A stretch of DNA of 33,991 nt from Candidatus Nomurabacteria bacterium. Its GTDB lineage: Bacteria; Patescibacteriota; Minisyncoccia; Phycocordibacterales; UBA1006. Below, piece after piece: positions 1,341 to 28,642 of this stretch. Every line of letters begins with the position of its first letter. Position 1 is the stretch's first letter. Below the pieces are notes generated by a model, which saw only the letters and a list, made by a program, of their open reading frames with translations, was not told the origin of the DNA and ran no database searches. The stretch is from the NCBI GenBank assembly GCA_029882015.1, contig JAOULM010000001.1, positions 1-33,991 on the forward strand, written 5' to 3'. The position numbers and the translations under genes were made by a program.

Positions 1341-1370
1341 CCAGCACTATAACGTGCTGGTTTTTTCTTT
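1341..1370 (+). terminator. rho-independent terminator after orf 1042-1332
   Basis: CCAGCAC-tataac-GTGCTGG followed by TTTTTTCTTT. Confidence 0.75.
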
Positions 1371-1398
1371 TGCCAAAAATCGGCTGGGCAGGTATACT
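1370..1398 (+). promoter_or_regulatory. sigma-70-like promoter of alaS (TTGCCA-17-TATACT); ATG 7 nt after the -10
   Basis: Hexamers at 1370-1375 and 1393-1398. Confidence 0.55.
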
Positions 1399-1405
1399 GG
1401 TGGGC

Positions 1406-3058
1406 ATGAAATCAAACGACATCCGCGAGAAATTTTTGACCTTTATGGAATCCAAGGGGCACACTCGTGCGCCCAGCTCATCATTGATTCCGACTGATCC
1501 ATCGGTTTTGTTTACCACTGCAGGAATGCAGCAGTTTAAGCCATATTATATGGGGGAAAAATCTCCATACGGGGATATGGCAACCAGCGTACAAAAATGT
1601 ATGCGTACTAGCGATATCGACGAGATAGGTGACGCCACCCATTTGACATTTTTCGAGATGTTGGGAAATTTTGCTTTTAATAATGCGGTGTCAAAACGGC
1701 AGGCTATAGAATGGGGGCATGAATTTATCACCAGCGAAATGAAATTGAAAATAGATTACATTACTATTTTTGGAGGAGATGATATAACTGCTCGTGATAG
1801 CGAATCCGAAGACATCTGGAAATCAATCGATGCAAGTCTAGATATCCGCCCCGAAGGGCGCGATGATGTATTCTGGGGGCCAACTGGTGACGAGGGTCCA
1901 TGTGGTCCAACAACCGAAATTTACATTGACGGAGTAGAGATTTGGAATATTGTTTTCAATGAATATTATTGTGACAAAGAAAAAAATTACAAAAAATTAG
2001 AAAATTTTGGTATTGATACTGGGATGGGATTGGAGCGGTTAGCTGTTGCTGTCCAAGGGGTAAATAATGTTTTTGAAACAGATTTGTTTAACAATGAATT
2101 AGACAAAGAAGATAGAATTGTTGCCGACCATGTTCGTTCCGCTGTATTTTTGGCGATTGACGGCGTGCACCCATCTAATACTGGGCAGGGATACATATTG
2201 CGACGCCTCATTCGCAGGGCTGTATTTTATTCTCAAAAAAATGACACACTAATAAAAGATAACATTGATTTTGTCTGGAATAAATTTTCTGATGTTTATG
2301 AAAAAGACTTTGCCGGAGATTATGAAACGGTCGTCGAGGTAATAGAAAAAGAAAAGAAAAACTTTGAATCTACTTTGGATCGCGCCGTCAGAGAGTTCGA
2401 AAAAAGAAGTGCTTCTGATCTTAGTGGAAAAGATGTATTTGAATTGTTCACCACATATGGAATGCCTTTTGAAATGACGCGGGAACTGGCCCACGGAAAA
2501 GGACTCGAGGCAGATGTCGACGGGGCTTATTCAGAATTCGAACAACACAAAGAATTATCAAAAACAGCTAGCGCGGGGAAATTCAAGGGGGGTATGTCTG
2601 ATGCTGGTGACCCACAGGTTACCAAATTACACACCGCACACCATCTATTGCTGGCTGCACTGCAGCAGGTTCTGGGACAGGACGTTAAACAACGAGGGAG
2701 CAACATCACATCTGAACGGTTACGTATTGATTTTAATTTTGACCGCAAAATGACCGACGATGAAAAACAGCAGGTCAATGATTTGGTGAATGGATGGATT
2801 GCTGAGGGACTACCCGTCATTAAAAAAACTATGCCAAAAGACGAAGCCGAGGCGTTGGGAGCCGAAATGGAATTTGGGGTGAAATATCCCGACACTGTGG
2901 ATGTCTATTTTATAGAAAATAAAAATGGAGAAATAATTTCCAAGGAATTCTGTGGTGGTCCGCATATTACGAACACCAGCGAGCTGGGAACATTCAGAAT
3001 CAAAAAAGAAGAATCCAGTTCGGCTGGAGTACGACGAATCAAGGCTGTTCTTGAATAA
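1406..3058 (+). CDS. alaS: alanyl-tRNA synthetase, minimised form (550 aa, no C-Ala domain)
   Basis: N-terminus MKSNDIREKFLxFxESKGH, FTTAGMQQFKPYY, GNFAF. Editing-site motifs HTAHHLL and CGGPHI. ATG 1406 preferred over 1370 because a TTGCCA-17-TATACT promoter lies at 1370-1398. Confidence 0.95.
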   Translation: MKSNDIREKFLTFMESKGHTRAPSSSLIPTDPSVLFTTAGMQQFKPYYMGEKSPYGDMATSVQKCMRTSDIDEIGDATHLTFFEMLGNFAFNNAVSKRQAIEWGHEFITSEMKLKIDYITIFGGDDITARDSESEDIWKSIDASLDIRPEGRDDVFWGPTGDEGPCGPTTEIYIDGVEIWNIVFNEYYCDKEKNYKKLENFGIDTGMGLERLAVAVQGVNNVFETDLFNNELDKEDRIVADHVRSAVFLAIDGVHPSNTGQGYILRRLIRRAVFYSQKNDTLIKDNIDFVWNKFSDVYEKDFAGDYETVVEVIEKEKKNFESTLDRAVREFEKRSASDLSGKDVFELFTTYGMPFEMTRELAHGKGLEADVDGAYSEFEQHKELSKTASAGKFKGGMSDAGDPQVTKLHTAHHLLLAALQQVLGQDVKQRGSNITSERLRIDFNFDRKMTDDEKQQVNDLVNGWIAEGLPVIKKTMPKDEAEALGAEMEFGVKYPDTVDVYFIENKNGEIISKEFCGGPHITNTSELGTFRIKKEESSSAGVRRIKAVLE

Positions 3059-22883: not shown

Positions 22884-22923
22884 GCTAGGTTTTATTGGTT
22901 TTTAAAAAACCAATAAAACCTAG
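22884..22923. promoter_or_regulatory. perfect 40-bp palindrome (20+20, no spacer) immediately upstream of the dnaB -10 element
   Basis: gctaggttttattggttttt / aaaaaccaataaaacctagc, read directly from the sequence. Confidence 0.7.
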
Positions 22924-22958
22924 CTGGGGATTGTGTGGATAGAGACTTTTTAAAAGAC

Positions 22959-22987
22959 TTGACAAATCTATCTAAACATGCTATACT
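22959..22987 (+). promoter_or_regulatory. near-consensus promoter of RNA1 (TTGACA-17-TATACT)
   Basis: Hexamers at 22959-22964 and 22982-22987. Confidence 0.6.
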
Positions 22988-22993
22988 CATTTT

Positions 22994-23294
22994 CAATGGG
23001 TGGATTATTTGCTTGTCACAGTGACAGGGGATAATACCGTAAAACCCAGTATGTACCGGTTAATTCCTCCCCGACGTAGCGGGAGGTCATCAGTTGGTTA
23101 TGACAGAAACAAGCGTGCGAGGGTTTGAGCCTTATGACCATGTATGAGAAAGTTATTGCCGAGCATAACGACTGATAAGCGATCAAGGTTCCGCCAAGCT
23201 TACGGCACATATGATTGCTGTAAGTAGAGCAACAAGGGAACCTTTTCGGGAAATGCCCCCATCAATTTTTTTGATGGGGGTTTTGTTTTTTTTT
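22994..23294 (+). ncRNA. unassigned ~300-nt sRNA-like transcription unit (RNA1)
   Basis: Consensus promoter TTGACA-17-TATACT (22959-22987) and strong terminator CCCCCATCAA-ttttt-TTGATGGGGG plus T-run (23256-23294). Internal helices include AAGGTTCC/GGAACCTT and CCTCCC/GGGAGG. No credible CDS. Confidence 0.55.
23256..23294 (+). terminator. terminator of RNA1
   Basis: CCCCCATCAA-ttttt-TTGATGGGGG followed by TTTTGTTTTTTTTT. Confidence 0.8.
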
Positions 23295-23320
23295 GATAAA
23301 TAAAAATATTCTGATACTAT
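23293..23320 (+). promoter_or_regulatory. promoter of RNA2 (TTGATA-16-TACTAT)
   Basis: Hexamers at 23293-23298 and 23315-23320. Confidence 0.45.
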
Positions 23321-23326
23321 TGTGAT

Positions 23327-23536
23327 GTGGGTGAGTAACAAATCGTGCACCCCACGAGATGTCCCACACGCCCTGGAGGTAATGAGCCCAGGGCATCTTG
23401 GAAACCATAGATAGATATAATATCTATCTCAAATATAAGAGGGCGAGCTGTTCTGGATAACAGGGCGGCTCCAATAACGGCATAGGGCAAATGAACCTGT
23501 GTCTAGGACCCCAGAATTTTTGGGGTCTGTTTTTTT
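23327..23536 (+). ncRNA. unassigned ~210-nt sRNA or cis-leader upstream of trpS (RNA2)
   Basis: Promoter TTGATA-16-TACTAT (23293-23320). Hairpins GCCCTGG/CCAGGGC, AGATAGATA/TATCTATCT and CTGTT/AACAG. Terminator GACCCCA/TGGGGTC plus T7 (23507-23536). Confidence 0.5.
23507..23536 (+). terminator. terminator (or attenuator) of RNA2, 36 nt before trpS
   Basis: GACCCCA-gaatttt-TGGGGTC followed by TGTTTTTTT. Confidence 0.7.
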
Positions 23537-23563
23537 ACACAAAATTTTCAAATTTGGTACAAT
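23535..23563 (+). promoter_or_regulatory. possible proximal trpS promoter (TTACAC-17-TGgTACAAT); ATG 9 nt after the -10
   Basis: Hexamers at 23535-23540 and 23558-23563. Confidence 0.45.
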
Positions 23564-23572
23564 AGCAACTAT

Positions 23573-24664: not shown

Positions 24665-26407
24665 ATGAAGGAATTTTTTGAGAATATAAAAAATACTTAT
24701 CGTAATTACCAAAAGGCGATAACGATAATGATGGTATGTATTTTTCTACAGCAAATGCTGATGGTTACAATACCCTATATTACTGGTGAAATAGTTGACT
24801 TGTTAAGCAGCAAATCATTAGACTCGTTTTTACCGATTGTTGGACTTGCTTGTCTTGCTCTGCTTGGGCACATATTTGCAAAGCTAATTTCATGGCAAAA
24901 AGAGAAAGTAAATATTAATTCATATAACTTTGATTTAAACAAAGACAATTATATGAATGGGATGAATCATTACCTTGGTTTATCTGGAGGGCAACACATG
25001 GGAGAAAATTCAGAAAAAAGAAGAAGTGCCATAGACAAGGGGGCAAATGCCTCTACAAATCTAAGTCACATGTTTTTTCATGAAATTCTTCCTGATATAT
25101 TTCGAACCGTTGTTGTTTTTTCCGCATTACTTATTTTTGATCCAATCATTGGAAGTATTTTATTGGCTTTATTTGTGTTAAATATTGTATTACAGATACT
25201 GACTACAAAAAACATGATGAAAAGCTTTGATGAGTGGCAAATGTTGGGTAAAGAGAGGGACAAGATAGTCGGAGAACATACTCGTAACGTTTTGCTTACC
25301 AAAAGTGTTGGTCAAGAAAGTGAAGCCGAGGATGAAATAGAGCAAGCATTTGATAGGTCAAATGATCATGCAAAAAAACTGTGGACCAAATTCATTAAGA
25401 GCTTGTTGATTATTTCCAGTTCAGTTCCATTTGCGGCAACGGGTGTTTCGCTAATTCTTGCATGGGGTGTTTTTATTGGAAATTTTTCAATAGGACATTT
25501 TGTTTTTGTGAGTATGTGGGCAGGAATGGCTGTAAGCCAAGCATGGACAATTCAACGTTACCAAAGAAGGATAATGCAGTTGTTGCCAGCTTTTCGTGAC
25601 TTGAAAAAAGAGCTAAGGGTGAAATCTGATATTGAGATAGCAAAAAATCCAATTTCAGGAATCATCCAAGATGGAAAAATTGAATTCAAAGACGTTTCTT
25701 TTTCTTATCAGGATAAAGACTTTGAATTGAATAATCTGTCTGTGGTTATTGAACCAGGAGAAAAGATTGGTATTGCAGGTATATCTGGTTCAGGTAAAAG
25801 CACATTTGTTAATTTACTTTTGCGTAACTATGATCCAATTTCTGGACAAGTTTTGGTTGATGATAATGATCTTAGATTAATTGATCTACAGGAATATAAA
25901 AATACTTCTGTGGGGCATGTCGATCAGTCAATATTATTATTTGATCGTACGGTTCGATATAATTTAGGTTATCCGGGAGGGAAAATATCAGAAGATGATA
26001 TGAAGCGTGCCCTTAAAATTGCCAATCTATATGATAGGGTTATGAAACACAAGGATGGTTTAGATGCCAAAATTGGAGAACGCGGAGTTAAATTATCCGG
26101 CGGAGAAAGACAGCGTTTGGCAATTGCCAGAGCCATCATTAAAAATCCAAAGATTTTGATTTTTGACGAAGCTACAGCATCATTAGATGCAAAGAACGAA
26201 AGCGAAATACAAAACGCTATCGACAAAGCTTCAAAGGGAAGGACAATGATTGCTATTGCGCACAGGCTAGCCACCATTCAAAATGCAGACAAAATTTTGT
26301 TTTTTGAAAAAGGCAGGCTGTCTGCAGTTGGAACTCATCTTGAGCTATTAAATAAATCAAAAGCTTATGGTGAATTGTGTAGTCATCAAAATTTACGGAT
26401 TGCATAA
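24665..26407 (+). CDS. ABC exporter, fused permease/ATPase (MsbA/MdlB-like)
   Basis: Six-TM N-terminal domain. Walker A GISGSGKST, signature LSGGERQRLAIARA, Walker B ILIFDEATASLD. Confidence 0.9.
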   Translation: MKEFFENIKNTYRNYQKAITIMMVCIFLQQMLMVTIPYITGEIVDLLSSKSLDSFLPIVGLACLALLGHIFAKLISWQKEKVNINSYNFDLNKDNYMNGMNHYLGLSGGQHMGENSEKRRSAIDKGANASTNLSHMFFHEILPDIFRTVVVFSALLIFDPIIGSILLALFVLNIVLQILTTKNMMKSFDEWQMLGKERDKIVGEHTRNVLLTKSVGQESEAEDEIEQAFDRSNDHAKKLWTKFIKSLLIISSSVPFAATGVSLILAWGVFIGNFSIGHFVFVSMWAGMAVSQAWTIQRYQRRIMQLLPAFRDLKKELRVKSDIEIAKNPISGIIQDGKIEFKDVSFSYQDKDFELNNLSVVIEPGEKIGIAGISGSGKSTFVNLLLRNYDPISGQVLVDDNDLRLIDLQEYKNTSVGHVDQSILLFDRTVRYNLGYPGGKISEDDMKRALKIANLYDRVMKHKDGLDAKIGERGVKLSGGERQRLAIARAIIKNPKILIFDEATASLDAKNESEIQNAIDKASKGRTMIAIAHRLATIQNADKILFFEKGRLSAVGTHLELLNKSKAYGELCSHQNLRIA

Positions 26408-26422
26408 AATATTAAAATTAAA

Positions 26423-26449
26423 ACGGACACAATTTGTGTCCGTTTTTTT
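26423..26449 (+). terminator. terminator after the ABC exporter gene
   Basis: ACGGACACA-att-TGTGTCCGT followed by T7. Confidence 0.8.
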
Positions 26450-26450
26450 A

Positions 26451-26479
26451 TTGCACAAATTTGGTTATTCTGGCATAAT
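26451..26479 (+). promoter_or_regulatory. promoter of the T-box leader (TTGCAC-17-TGgCATAAT)
   Basis: Hexamers at 26451-26456 and 26474-26479. Confidence 0.55.
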
Positions 26480-26485
26480 TGGGGT

Positions 26486-26640
26486 ATTCACTGATGAGCC
26501 TGGATGATAACAGGCGAGGTGTCAATTTTATATAAAGCGCCTTTTGCTACGTGTCGAGCGGCAAGGGGAATCGAGGTGGCACCGCGGATTTATATTCGTC
26601 CTCATAAATTATTCAGTTAGTTTGTGGGGAATTTTTTTAC
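26486..26640 (+). promoter_or_regulatory. T-box riboswitch leader (compact), apparent Asp specifier, controlling hydrolase-aspS
   Basis: Antiterminator: GAGG (26573-26576), 7-nt bulge UGGCACC (26577-26583, canonical UGGNACC), helix GCGGAU/AUUCGU, then CCUC (26600-26603). Competing terminator CCUCAUAAA/UUUGUGGGG plus U7 (26600-26638). 5' hairpin has a K-turn-like UGAUGA/CGAG base and the loop GAUGAUAA. Confidence 0.8.
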
Positions 26641-26649
26641 TCAAAATAT

Positions 26650-27213
26650 ATGAAAACAGCAATTATACTTCATGGCATGCCCGATAAAGAAGAATACTTT
26701 GATCCAGATAACCCATCTCAATCAAATCGCCACTGGTTTCCGTGGCTACAAAAACAATTTGCTTTAAATAACATCTTGGCTCAAACTCTCGAAATGCCAA
26801 AACCATATGAGCCGATTTATGAAGATTGGAAGGAGATGTTTGAACGAATGCCAATTGATAGCGAGACAACATTGGTGGGGCATAGTCTTGGTGCAGGCTT
26901 TTTAGTTCGATGGCTTTCTGAATCTGACAAGAAAGTTGGTAAAGTCGTACTTGTAGCTCCGTGGTTGGACCCGACTGATATTATAAAACCTTTCTTTGAC
27001 TTTGAAATTGACGAGAGTATCTCAACAAAAACAGAAAGTTTGTCTATATTTTACTCTACAAATGATTTTGAAGATATTCAGGATAGTGTTACCAAGCTTA
27101 AGGGATCACTTAAGAATATAAACTGGAAAGAGTTTGAAAACAAAGGCCATTTCTGTACTGAGGACCTTGGTGGACCAGAATTTCCAGAATTAAGAGATTT
27201 ACTTATTAATTAA
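26650..27213 (+). CDS. alpha/beta serine hydrolase, YdeN/RBBP9-like
   Basis: AIILHGMPD...HWFPWLQKQF...LVGHSLGAGFLVRWL (GxSxG nucleophile elbow), about 187 aa. First gene behind the T-box leader. Confidence 0.7.
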   Translation: MKTAIILHGMPDKEEYFDPDNPSQSNRHWFPWLQKQFALNNILAQTLEMPKPYEPIYEDWKEMFERMPIDSETTLVGHSLGAGFLVRWLSESDKKVGKVVLVAPWLDPTDIIKPFFDFEIDESISTKTESLSIFYSTNDFEDIQDSVTKLKGSLKNINWKEFENKGHFCTEDLGGPEFPELRDLLIN

Positions 27214-27223
27214 TTTTTAATAT

Positions 27224-28642
27224 ATGCGAACACTAATAAAAAACTTAAATACACAAAAGGGAGAGACCGTAACAATAAACGGTTGGGTTCACGTTGCGCG
27301 GGATCAGGGGAAAATGGCTTTCTTTGATTTTCGTGACATGACCGGAACCGTACAGGGTGTCGTATTCGGAAAACCAGAGGTTTTGGAAATTGCCAAAACC
27401 TTGCGTCCAGAATGGGTTGTTGCCGTAACTGGTATTGTGAACGAACGACCCGAAAAAATGGTCAAAGCTGGCGTATTAAACGGCGACATCGAATTGGAAA
27501 TTACAGAAATTACAGTATTGAACACAGCGACGACGCCAGCATTTGAATTGACCGAAAGCACTATAGGAATCAACGAACGTGTGCGATTGGAAAATCGCTA
27601 TGTTGATTTGCGAACTGATCGCTTGCAGAAAAACCTGCGCATGCGTCACGCCGTGGCGAAACTGACTCGGGATATTTTGGATGACGAGGGATTCACAGAA
27701 ATCGAGACTCCGTTGTTTACGAAATCAACTCCCGAGGGGGCTCGCGATTATGTCGTGCCTGCGCGTCTGTACCCAGGACAGTTTTACGCACTGCCACAGT
27801 CACCTCAGCAGTATAAACAGCTATTGATGGCTGGGGGCATCGAGCGGTATTTTCAGTTTGCAAAATGTATGCGCGACGAGGATACCCGTGGTGACCGTCA
27901 ACCAGAATTTACACAGATGGACATGGAGATGTCATTCGCGACCGAAGACGAAATCATGGCAATCAACGAAAAGGTCTTGATAGCTATTGTTGAAAAACTA
28001 TATCCAGAAAAACGAATCCAAACAGTTCCATTCCCACGCATTACGTATGCCGAGGCTATGGAAAAACATGGTAGCGATCGACCTGATCTACGTGAAGACA
28101 AAACCGACGACAATCTATTGGCGTTTGCGTGGGTGGTGGACTGGCCATTTTTCGAAAAAACTGCGGACAGCGATGATCCACAGGCAACAGGAGAATGGAC
28201 GTTTACGCATAACCCATTTTCATTGTCGAAACCAGAACATATCGAGAACTTGAAAAACAAAACAAACATCGGTGACATCATGGCGTCACAGTACGACATT
28301 ACATTGAACGGACTGGAAATCGGTGGGGGATCAATCCGAGCCCATGATCCAGAAATCTTGAAATCTATTTTGCAGATTTTGGGACACAGCGATGAAAAAA
28401 TTGAAAAGAATTTCGGTCACATGTTGCGCGCATTGGGATCAGGAACACCACCACACGGGGGAATCGCGTGGGGGTTTGACCGATTGATGATGATCCTGCA
28501 AAACGAACCAAACATCCGCGAGGTAATCGCATTTCCAAAAACCGGCGAAGGTCGCGATCTGATGATGGATTCACCGTCACCAATTTCAGACCAGCAGTTG
28601 GGGGAATTGAATATTAAATTAGATTTACCAGTAGAAGAGTAG
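27224..28642 (+). CDS. aspS: aspartyl-tRNA synthetase, bacterial-type sequence but lacking the GAD insertion domain (472 aa)
   Basis: OB-fold N-terminus, FYALPQSPQQYKQLLM, PEFTQMDMEMSF, FTHNPF, GGGSIR, PPHGGIAWGFDRL. Confidence 0.95.
   Translation: MRTLIKNLNTQKGETVTINGWVHVARDQGKMAFFDFRDMTGTVQGVVFGKPEVLEIAKTLRPEWVVAVTGIVNERPEKMVKAGVLNGDIELEITEITVLNTATTPAFELTESTIGINERVRLENRYVDLRTDRLQKNLRMRHAVAKLTRDILDDEGFTEIETPLFTKSTPEGARDYVVPARLYPGQFYALPQSPQQYKQLLMAGGIERYFQFAKCMRDEDTRGDRQPEFTQMDMEMSFATEDEIMAINEKVLIAIVEKLYPEKRIQTVPFPRITYAEAMEKHGSDRPDLREDKTDDNLLAFAWVVDWPFFEKTADSDDPQATGEWTFTHNPFSLSKPEHIENLKNKTNIGDIMASQYDITLNGLEIGGGSIRAHDPEILKSILQILGHSDEKIEKNFGHMLRALGSGTPPHGGIAWGFDRLMMILQNEPNIREVIAFPKTGEGRDLMMDSPSPISDQQLGELNIKLDLPVEE

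Follow-up and report, generated by a model that had tools for sequence, protein, structure and literature searches.

A minimal T-box leader with an ultrashort Stem I upstream of a hydrolase-aspS operon in Candidatus Nomurabacteria

Introduction

How much structure can a T-box riboswitch lose and still be equipped to recognize a tRNA? This question is raised by a leader on the 33,991-bp stretch of DNA analysed here (the window), which is the entire contig of a 'Candidatus Nomurabacteria bacterium' metagenome-assembled genome. An initial annotation had described a compact T-box at this place, with an Asp (GAU) specifier and a truncated Stem I, upstream of the aspartyl-tRNA synthetase (AspRS) gene aspS. 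It had also taken the genome to resemble those of the Candidate Phyla Radiation (CPR), which agrees with the origin of the contig and with the relatives of the window's AspRS, all of which are Patescibacteria. We conclude that the element is probably (at roughly 80%) a functional tRNA-Asp T-box riboswitch of minimal architecture, which would control a hydrolase-aspS operon by transcription attenuation.

T-boxes serve as a model system for the recognition of one structured RNA by another, and this leader tests the rules that are currently held for them. T-box control of aspS is already known in Firmicutes (PMC2494555). Our literature search found no paper that combines T-boxes with Patescibacteria, CPR, Parcubacteria or Saccharibacteria, and in TBDB the short-Stem-I model was searched in Actinobacteria only.

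Results

The leader joins a T-box core to a 33-nt Stem I

Re-reading of the sequence confirmed every coordinate and motif of the initial annotation; the parts of the element are collected in Table 1. The stretch at 26573-26586 reads GAGGUGGCACCGCG and follows the T-box consensus AGGGUGGNACCGCG, as quoted in PMC11297988, with two departures that both lie in A1 and are compensated in A1'. All parts of the discriminator domain are present as well, namely the RRRxG motif, Stem III (fold energy -11.5 kcal/mol), the AA that follows it and a G-U pair closing A2. The RRRxG-Stem III-AA motif and the A2 G-U pair are the features that define this domain, and the G-U pair is the steric sensor of the aminoacyl group (PMC7583486).

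Stem I is a K-turn followed by a 5-bp helix with an 8-nt terminal loop, and its 33 nt contain no AG bulge, distal loop or elbow-binding platform (interdigitated double T-loop motif, IDTM) of the class I kind. The K-turn has the GA motif (CACU-GAU-GA / GA-GGUG) and is predicted to adopt a kinked shape. Its GA/GA dinucleotides are conserved, and it is the most conserved part of Stem I in the leader family described below. Neither Stem II nor the IIA/B pseudoknot was detected in the linker at 26522-26539, which carries no S-turn motif and forms no helix in the consensus fold of eight leaders. Measured from the K-turn through the antiterminator, the element has 115 nt, and it combines a transcriptional design with an ultrashort Stem I and the lack of Stem II and IIA/B.

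A family of related leaders shows compensatory changes in every helix

Covariance model R1 was built from the window and five relatives on a hand-checked structure. It was applied to 80 reference-genome aspS loci, whose AspRS proteins are 64-82% identical to that of the window, and to five further aspS loci found through protein identity; individual loci are referred to by L numbers. Besides the window, R1 matched 25 of the 80 reference-genome loci and all five further loci, which amounts to 30 of 85 related Patescibacteria loci. All accepted matches lie on the aspS strand and upstream of aspS, and no leader was found by R1 at ten loci that carry only the hydrolase. One match at L024 (16.5 bits, E = 0.62) lies downstream of aspS and was treated as chance.

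In an alignment of 27 leaders fitted to the covariance model, 91.2% of cells were paired, as compared with 41-52% in slid controls. Changes on both sides were seen in 18 of 24 pairs, with none of 500 shuffles reaching the observed values, and the first alignment gave similar results (counts for each helix in Table 1). In A1, for example, GAGG/CCUC is found in place of AGGG/CCCU, and the pair closing A2 is G-U in 17 of the 27 leaders and G-C in nine. A plain MAFFT alignment was used as an independent control: for eight leaders of the same architecture as the window, RNAalifold returned the identical five helices, 15 of 23 pairs being compensatory, and placed no helix between Stem I and Stem III and none beyond the five.

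A search with Rfam model RF00230 had been proposed in the initial annotation as a check, and its outcome was mixed. At the curated gathering threshold (93 bits) nothing was found, neither in the window nor in any of the 11 relatives tested. A permissive search gave a significant match to the 3' half of the window element, with 38.4 bits and E = 2.9e-7 for the 321 nt searched (~3e-5 when scaled to the whole window). This score derives from Stem III and the antiterminator, the latter aligned with high posterior probability; the sub-threshold value thus reflects the missing 5' domains and not the core. The 'Stem I' of RF00230 was placed on the terminator hairpin of the upstream gene, a placement that we rejected on the position of the promoter and the covariation of the short hairpin. 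Rfam's standard model therefore misses the whole leader group, which is an annotation gap. Taken together, the RF00230 match, the R1 family, the covariation and the RNAalifold fold confirm, by sequence comparison, that the window element is a genuine T-box leader.

The specifier is the second GAU of the Stem I loop

The 8-nt loop GAUGAUAA contains GAU twice. Alignment of the leaders upheld the Asp identity of the specifier, since GAU or GAC stands at a fixed place of the loop in 26 leaders, and moved it to the second GAU, at 26506-26508. At this position GAC occurs in 23 leaders, GAU in three (the window, L001 and L002) and AAC in two, within a conserved loop register N-U-GAC-A-(A/C); the base directly 3' of the triplet is a purine in every leader aligned. 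The loop reads CUGACAA in seven leaders and GAUGACAA in six, while xUGACAC and similar forms are found in several others. The window shares its loop with L001, and L002 has AAUGAUAC. These two are the closest relatives of the window, and the change from GAC to GAU is synonymous. No single amino-acid identity is kept across the family in the neighbouring frames of the loop. The first GAU was considered as specifier and discarded, because it is out of the alignment register and missing from the 7-nt CUGACAA loops. Codon and synthetase agree throughout, with GAU-A (26506-26509) in the window and GAC-A in 23 relatives, each with aspS downstream.

The two leaders with AAC (Asn) at the specifier position, L053:5748-5863 and L070:5719-5858, both keep the S-turn of Stem II, and in both cases a normal tRNA-Asp(GUC) gene lies nearby. 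This suggests that aspS may respond to tRNA-Asn in these genomes, as would be expected of a non-discriminating AspRS combined with Asn-tRNA made by transamidation.

The T-box bulge matches the discriminator base of tRNA-Asp

The C of the UGGC bulge had been predicted to pair with a G73 discriminator base. The window contains no tRNA gene, and we turned to tRNA-Asp genes at leader-carrying loci. All three such genes (at L027, L053 and L070) have anticodon GUC within the anticodon loop CUGUCAC, do not encode CCA, and carry G73, which is complementary to the C of UGGC. The prediction thus holds in these relatives. The bulge is UGGC in 29 of 31 leaders and UGGU in the remaining two (L002:5334 and L012:5049), where G73 would give a G-U instead of a G-C pair.

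There is no room for a longer Stem I

The predicted promoter upstream of the leader ends with an extended -10 box 9 nt before the first base of Stem I, and the transcript is predicted to start a few bases 5' of Stem I. Almost all relatives likewise have a -10 box, in many cases an extended (TGn) one, whose end lies 5-9 nt 5' of Stem I. The space between the terminator of the preceding gene and Stem I is only ~40 nt and is occupied by the promoter, so that an AG bulge, distal loop or platform would have no place there. A long Stem I hidden further upstream can thus be ruled out, the more so as the relatives have the same layout. The truncation of Stem I and the loss of its distal platform, as initially described, are therefore borne out by the position of the promoter and by the covariation of the short helix.

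The antiterminator competes with an intrinsic terminator

The competing terminator consumes U26599 and the whole A1' strand, so that antiterminator and terminator are mutually exclusive. The terminator hairpin (-15.0 kcal/mol) is more stable than the antiterminator (-8.3 kcal/mol). When Stem I and Stem III are kept fixed in the whole leader, the energies are -38.9 kcal/mol for the terminator state and -32.2 kcal/mol for the antiterminator state, a difference of ~7 kcal/mol. Termination is thus the default, and read-through needs an external stabilizer, as in all T-boxes. In nearly every relative, too, the 3' strand of the antiterminator is overlapped by a terminator with a U-run behind it. The competition proposed in the initial annotation is accordingly supported by the terminator scan, by the energies of the two states and by conservation. 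Translational control was considered and excluded on the rho-independent terminator with its U7 tract; the start codon lies 12 nt past this tract, and no Shine-Dalgarno sequence is found inside the switch helices.

The relatives form a graded series of architectures

The architecture of the window is common to about nine relatives. At least five others (L045, L053, L059, L070 and L027) have a Stem II-like hairpin with the AGUAGA signature of an S-turn. At the other end of the series, four leaders of 84-92 nt (L032, L078, L035 and L042) have only 22-29 unpaired nt between Stem I and A1, and thus neither Stem II nor Stem III. They retain purine strings (AAAGAG..AAAAGU), the specifier GAC, UGGC and the terminator, whereas Stem III has been described as indispensable (PMC7583486). 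The window element is an architectural variant of the T-box class, and it departs from the published rules further than the initial annotation had estimated.

The leader precedes a variable gene slot and aspS

The identification of the downstream synthetase gene as aspS was correct (NF001750), but aspS is the second gene of the operon: a serine hydrolase gene comes first, and 10 nt separate the two. Between the end of the leader and aspS there are 52-143 nt in 15 of 23 relatives, and the others carry varied intervening genes. Depending on the relative, the slot holds a gene for a serine hydrolase, for a Peptidase_S51 or for an Mrr-like nuclease, holds small open reading frames (ORFs), or is empty; examples are given in Table 1. 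The closest homologues of the hydrolase lie in unrelated neighbourhoods without a T-box. Judged from gene order, the hydrolase is a passenger gene and aspS the constant, conserved partner under the putative control. The slot looks like an insertion hotspot, whose inserted genes would ride on tRNA-Asp-controlled transcription.

The AspRS of the window has 472 aa, as against 590 positions of the bacterial model; it is matched in two stretches, and the insertion domain is absent. The alanyl-tRNA synthetase (AlaRS; window 1370-3058) has only 562 aa. The small size of both enzymes fits the reduced proteins typical of CPR genomes. No T-box was present at the three other aminoacyl-tRNA synthetase genes of the window, which encode AlaRS, CysRS and a Trp/Tyr-type enzyme.

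A gap of ~690 nt between dnaB and the Trp/Tyr-type synthetase gene (window 22884-23572) contains two units on the + strand (~22995-23292 and ~23326-23540), each with its own promoter and terminator. Compared with shuffled controls, both have much better folds (z = -4.2 and -5.6), and neither matches an Rfam family or a T-box. They may be unannotated structured RNAs.

A pattern scan of metagenomes for compact T-boxes with a base other than C at the discriminator-pairing position returned 63 stretches, nearly all of them GC-rich DNA matched by chance; with the model, six reach E ≤ 1. The four best stretches lie upstream of genes that, read by eye, encode IleRS, PheRS α, ThrRS and a pyrophosphatase-like protein, and none of these four has a short codon-bearing hairpin. 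One metagenomic T-box (L124:1269-1382, - strand, 46% GC, with UGGU and a terminator) precedes a 176-aa ORF, the N-terminus of which resembles inorganic pyrophosphatase by eye. This would be an unusual T-box target if confirmed.

Table 1. Features of the leader, its locus and related loci (positions refer to the window unless an L number is given; the last column counts pairs with changes on both sides)
Feature	Position	Strand	Description and evidence	Covariation
Predicted promoter	26451-26479	+	-35 TTGCAC (26451-26456), 17-nt spacer, extended -10 TGg-CATAAT (26471-26479); promoter scan	
T-box leader including terminator	26489-26638	+	predicted to control the hydrolase-aspS operon	
Ultrashort Stem I	26489-26521	+	33 nt; sequence, covariation, RNAalifold	
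Stem I, K-turn C-stem	26489-26492 / 26518-26521	+	CACU / GGUG	4/4 (first alignment), 3/4 (enlarged alignment)
Stem I, K-turn bulge	26493-26495	+	GAU	
Stem I, K-turn sheared pairs	26496-26497 / 26516-26517	+	G26496-A26517, A26497-G26516	
Stem I, hairpin helix	26498-26502 / 26511-26515	+	GCCUG / CAGGC, 5 bp	5/5 (both alignments)
Stem I, terminal loop	26503-26510	+	GAUGAUAA, 8 nt	
Specifier (Asp)	26506-26508	+	GAU, followed by conserved purine A26509; in-register alignment	
Linker	26522-26539	+	18 nt, single-stranded, A/U-rich; ends in AAGCG (26535-26539), RRRxG motif	
Stem III	26540-26568	+	CCUUUUGC / GCAAGGGG plus inner 3-bp extension; conserved AA (26569-26570) next	6/6 (modelled pairs)
Antiterminator	26573-26603	+	A1 GAGG, bulge UGGCACC, A2 GCGGAU-uuau-AUUCGU, A1' CCUC	
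A1 / A1'	26573-26576 / 26600-26603	+	GAGG / CCUC	2/4
T-box bulge	26577-26583	+	UGGCACC	
A2	26584-26599	+	closed by wobble pair G26584-U26599	2/5
Competing intrinsic terminator	26599-26638	+	hairpin 26599-26630, U7 at 26632-26638; terminator scan	
ABC-exporter gene	24665-26407	+	upstream of the leader	
Intrinsic terminator of ABC-exporter gene	26420-26446	+	12 pairs and T-run; terminator scan; 5' limit of leader space	
Serine hydrolase gene	26650-27213	+	RBBP9/YdeN type, 187 aa; Pfam PF06821; first gene downstream of leader	
aspS	27224-28642	+	472-aa bacterial-type AspRS; NCBIfam NF001750, 594 bits (cut-off 443), matched in two stretches	
84-92-nt aspS leaders	L032:5838-5921; L078:5849-5933; L035:5845-5932; L042:614-705			
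Leader-aspS slot, examples	window 26650-27213; L154:837-1496; L155:595-1485; L156:835-1499		gene content differs between relatives	

Discussion

A predicted two-contact mechanism

The anatomy of the leader, its conservation and covariation, its fit to codon, synthetase and discriminator base, and the energetics of its two states are described above. From these features we infer tRNA binding, charge sensing and read-through as follows. Transcription would begin just 5' of the 33-nt Stem I, whose 8-nt loop presents GAU followed by A. By default the terminator at 26599-26638 would form and halt transcription before the hydrolase gene and aspS. Once uncharged tRNA-Asp builds up, GAU of the Stem I loop would be paired by its anticodon GUC, and UGGC of the T-box bulge by its free 3' end, G73-C-C-A. 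This pairing would stabilize the weaker antiterminator (Stem III and A1/A2, 26540-26603) and let RNA polymerase continue into the hydrolase gene and aspS. At G26584-U26599 a steric clash would exclude charged tRNA-Asp, as in other T-boxes.

Since the platform and Stem II are absent, recognition would rest on two contacts joined by the flexible linker of 18 nt. With its 5-bp stem, its 7-8-nt loop and a triplet flanked by U on the 5' side and by a purine on the 3' side, the Stem I hairpin resembles an anticodon arm, and UGAYA in its loop is complementary to positions 33-37 of tRNA-Asp (UGUCA). The hairpin may thus bind the anticodon loop of the tRNA by a loop-loop 'kissing' contact. A 1976 study by Grosjean, Söll and Crothers reportedly found that two tRNAs whose anticodons are complementary form a complex of far greater stability than the simple pairing of trinucleotides. 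By analogy, stability of this type could explain how so small a Stem I holds a tRNA. We tentatively propose, at somewhat less than even odds, a natural T-box that works during transcription by only two contacts with the tRNA (loop-loop N-U-GAY-A-N and NCCA/UGGN), with neither elbow docking nor a Stem II clamp, and in four genomes even without Stem III. Such a T-box, if real, would upset present views on the minimum that T-boxes need for tRNA recognition, and the element would be the smallest natural tRNA-sensing riboswitch.

Several points weigh against a functional tRNA-Asp switch in the window. Published work holds that tRNA is hardly bound by a truncated Stem I that lacks the platform, except where there is a Stem II (PMC7583486; PMC11297988), that the Stem II domain is essential once the platform is missing, and that transcriptional T-boxes generally require the platform for fast capture of the tRNA elbow (both PMC7583486). 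By these rules the window design should bind tRNA poorly. The GAU-GUC pairing includes a G-U wobble and is weaker than the pairing of GAC, which most relatives have. The tRNA-Asp gene of the window genome is not on the contig, and G73 is accordingly established for relatives only. The leader is missing from about two thirds of the related aspS loci in the R1 search, which makes it dispensable in the clade. The transcription start site is a predicted one, and the function assigned to the leader rests on comparative inference. Finally, in the minimum-free-energy fold without constraints, GGUGUCA (26518-26524) is paired to the T-box bulge, and the K-turn C-stem is not formed.

This segment, which comprises the 3' strand of the K-turn C-stem and the start of the linker, has 7-nt complementarity to UGGCACC (26577-26583). 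Read from their sequences, L001, L002 and L004 can also form 7 bp with the bulge (through GGUGCUA), and other members 3-5 bp from GGUG/CACC. The pairing could represent an off-state or a coincidence.

Alternative explanations

The published binding requirements also lead to the idea that the element is the same T-box, but that its two RNA contacts are insufficient and an extra factor replaces the platform and Stem II. In mutational and binding studies, known T-boxes lose much affinity without one or the other (PMC7583486; PMC11297988), and K-turn-binding proteins may assist T-boxes with suboptimal K-turns (PMC7583486). An L7Ae-type protein of this kind could act on the K-turn, the best conserved part of Stem I in the family. 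Another CPR protein, a tertiary contact made by the linker or by the Stem III loop, or a slow or paused RNA polymerase, by which the capture of tRNA would become kinetically less demanding, could play the same part, the U/A-rich linker being a conceivable pause site. We regard the need for such a factor as less likely than not. No candidate was identified, and the consensus fold contains no additional conserved helix. A conserved contact through the Stem III loop is also hard to reconcile with the wide differences in loop size and sequence between leaders of one and the same architecture.

The graded series could also be read as one of decay, from leaders with Stem II through those with Stem III only to those with neither. 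The window element would then be a relic of a full T-box that no longer senses tRNA and has a leaky constitutive terminator or no role at all. Most aspS loci of the clade lack the leader, and the design violates the published requirements for tRNA binding (PMC7583486), both as expected of a relic. We nevertheless find this improbable, because a relic would have lost features that persist here across genomes whose AspRS proteins share only 64-82% identity: compensation in all helices, an invariant T-box bulge, synonymous change alone (GAC to GAU) at the specifier with a purine following it, RRRxG and AA flanks, the sensor G-U pair and a terminator that matches. A different specificity is conceivable in that several triplets overlap in the 8-nt loop, so that GAUGAUAA could be read as the first GAU, as AUG (Met) or as AUA (Ile), and in that AAC at the specifier position of L053 and L070 brings in tRNA-Asn. 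It is, however, the triplet at 26506-26508 alone that keeps one amino-acid identity (GAU/GAC) across the family, the preceding frame being UGA and the following one AUA in the window and ACA in relatives, and the first GAU does not exist in the 7-nt loops. GAU cannot pair with the Asn anticodon GUU, and the gene regulated would be aspS. A specificity other than Asp is thus very improbable.

Implications

With a tRNA-Asp T-box as the favoured reading, the leader places T-box regulation in the Candidate Phyla Radiation and extends its known range. The relatives, from Stem II-bearing leaders down to 84 nt, constitute a natural deletion series in which the minimal needs of tRNA decoding and charge sensing become testable. 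A specific tRNA sensor of ~115 nt would also be an attractive part for RNA engineering.

Comparison with known T-boxes

The initial annotation had likened the leader to the shortened Stem I variants of actinobacterial ileS T-boxes. Intermediate and 'ultrashort' forms of Stem I are known from translational T-boxes of Actinobacteria (PMC7583486), and structures of the ileS T-boxes of Mycobacterium tuberculosis and Nocardia farcinica are described in PMC7583486 and PMC11297988. According to Sherwood et al. (2015), as cited in these two papers, the ileS T-boxes with ultrashort Stem I form the translational class II. The likeness stands for Stem I, which in both cases is a K-turn with a short helix, has the codon near the 5' end and lacks the platform. 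It extends to the discriminator domain with Stem III, purine flanks, UGGN bulge and A2 G-U pair, and the Stem II-like hairpin with AGUAGA is kept by the five relatives named above, but not by the window. Beyond this the two systems differ. The actinobacterial T-boxes keep Stem II and the IIA/B pseudoknot and need them for tRNA binding (PMC7583486; PMC11297988), to the point that shortening of Stem II in the M. tuberculosis ileS T-box abolishes measurable binding (PMC11297988), whereas the window has neither. The comparison thus understated how odd the window element is. Furthermore, they control translation by means of a sequestrator that masks the ribosome-binding site, where the window has an intrinsic terminator with U7, and they are specific for Ile and found in Actinobacteria, as opposed to Asp and Patescibacteria.

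Glycine T-boxes alone naturally lack Stem II, and they keep the platform and a strong GGC/GCC pairing (PMC7583486). Like Firmicutes glyQS, the window element is built for transcription attenuation from Stem I, a flexible linker, Stem III and an antiterminator, with neither Stem II nor IIA/B. In contrast to the window, glyQS has a long Stem I, in which interdigitated T-loops make up a platform for stacking on the tRNA elbow, and its GGC/GCC pairing is the published reason why Stem II is dispensable there (PMC7583486). The GAU-GUC pairing of the window, with one G-C, one A-U and one G-U pair, is weaker. Compared with canonical T-boxes of ~200-300 nt, which have a long Stem I, Stem II, IIA/B and Stem III, the window element has 115 nt and scores 38.4 against 93 bits. 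With the canonical aspS T-boxes of Firmicutes (RF00230; PMC2494555) it nevertheless shares an Asp codon as specifier, aspS downstream and the competition between antiterminator and terminator.

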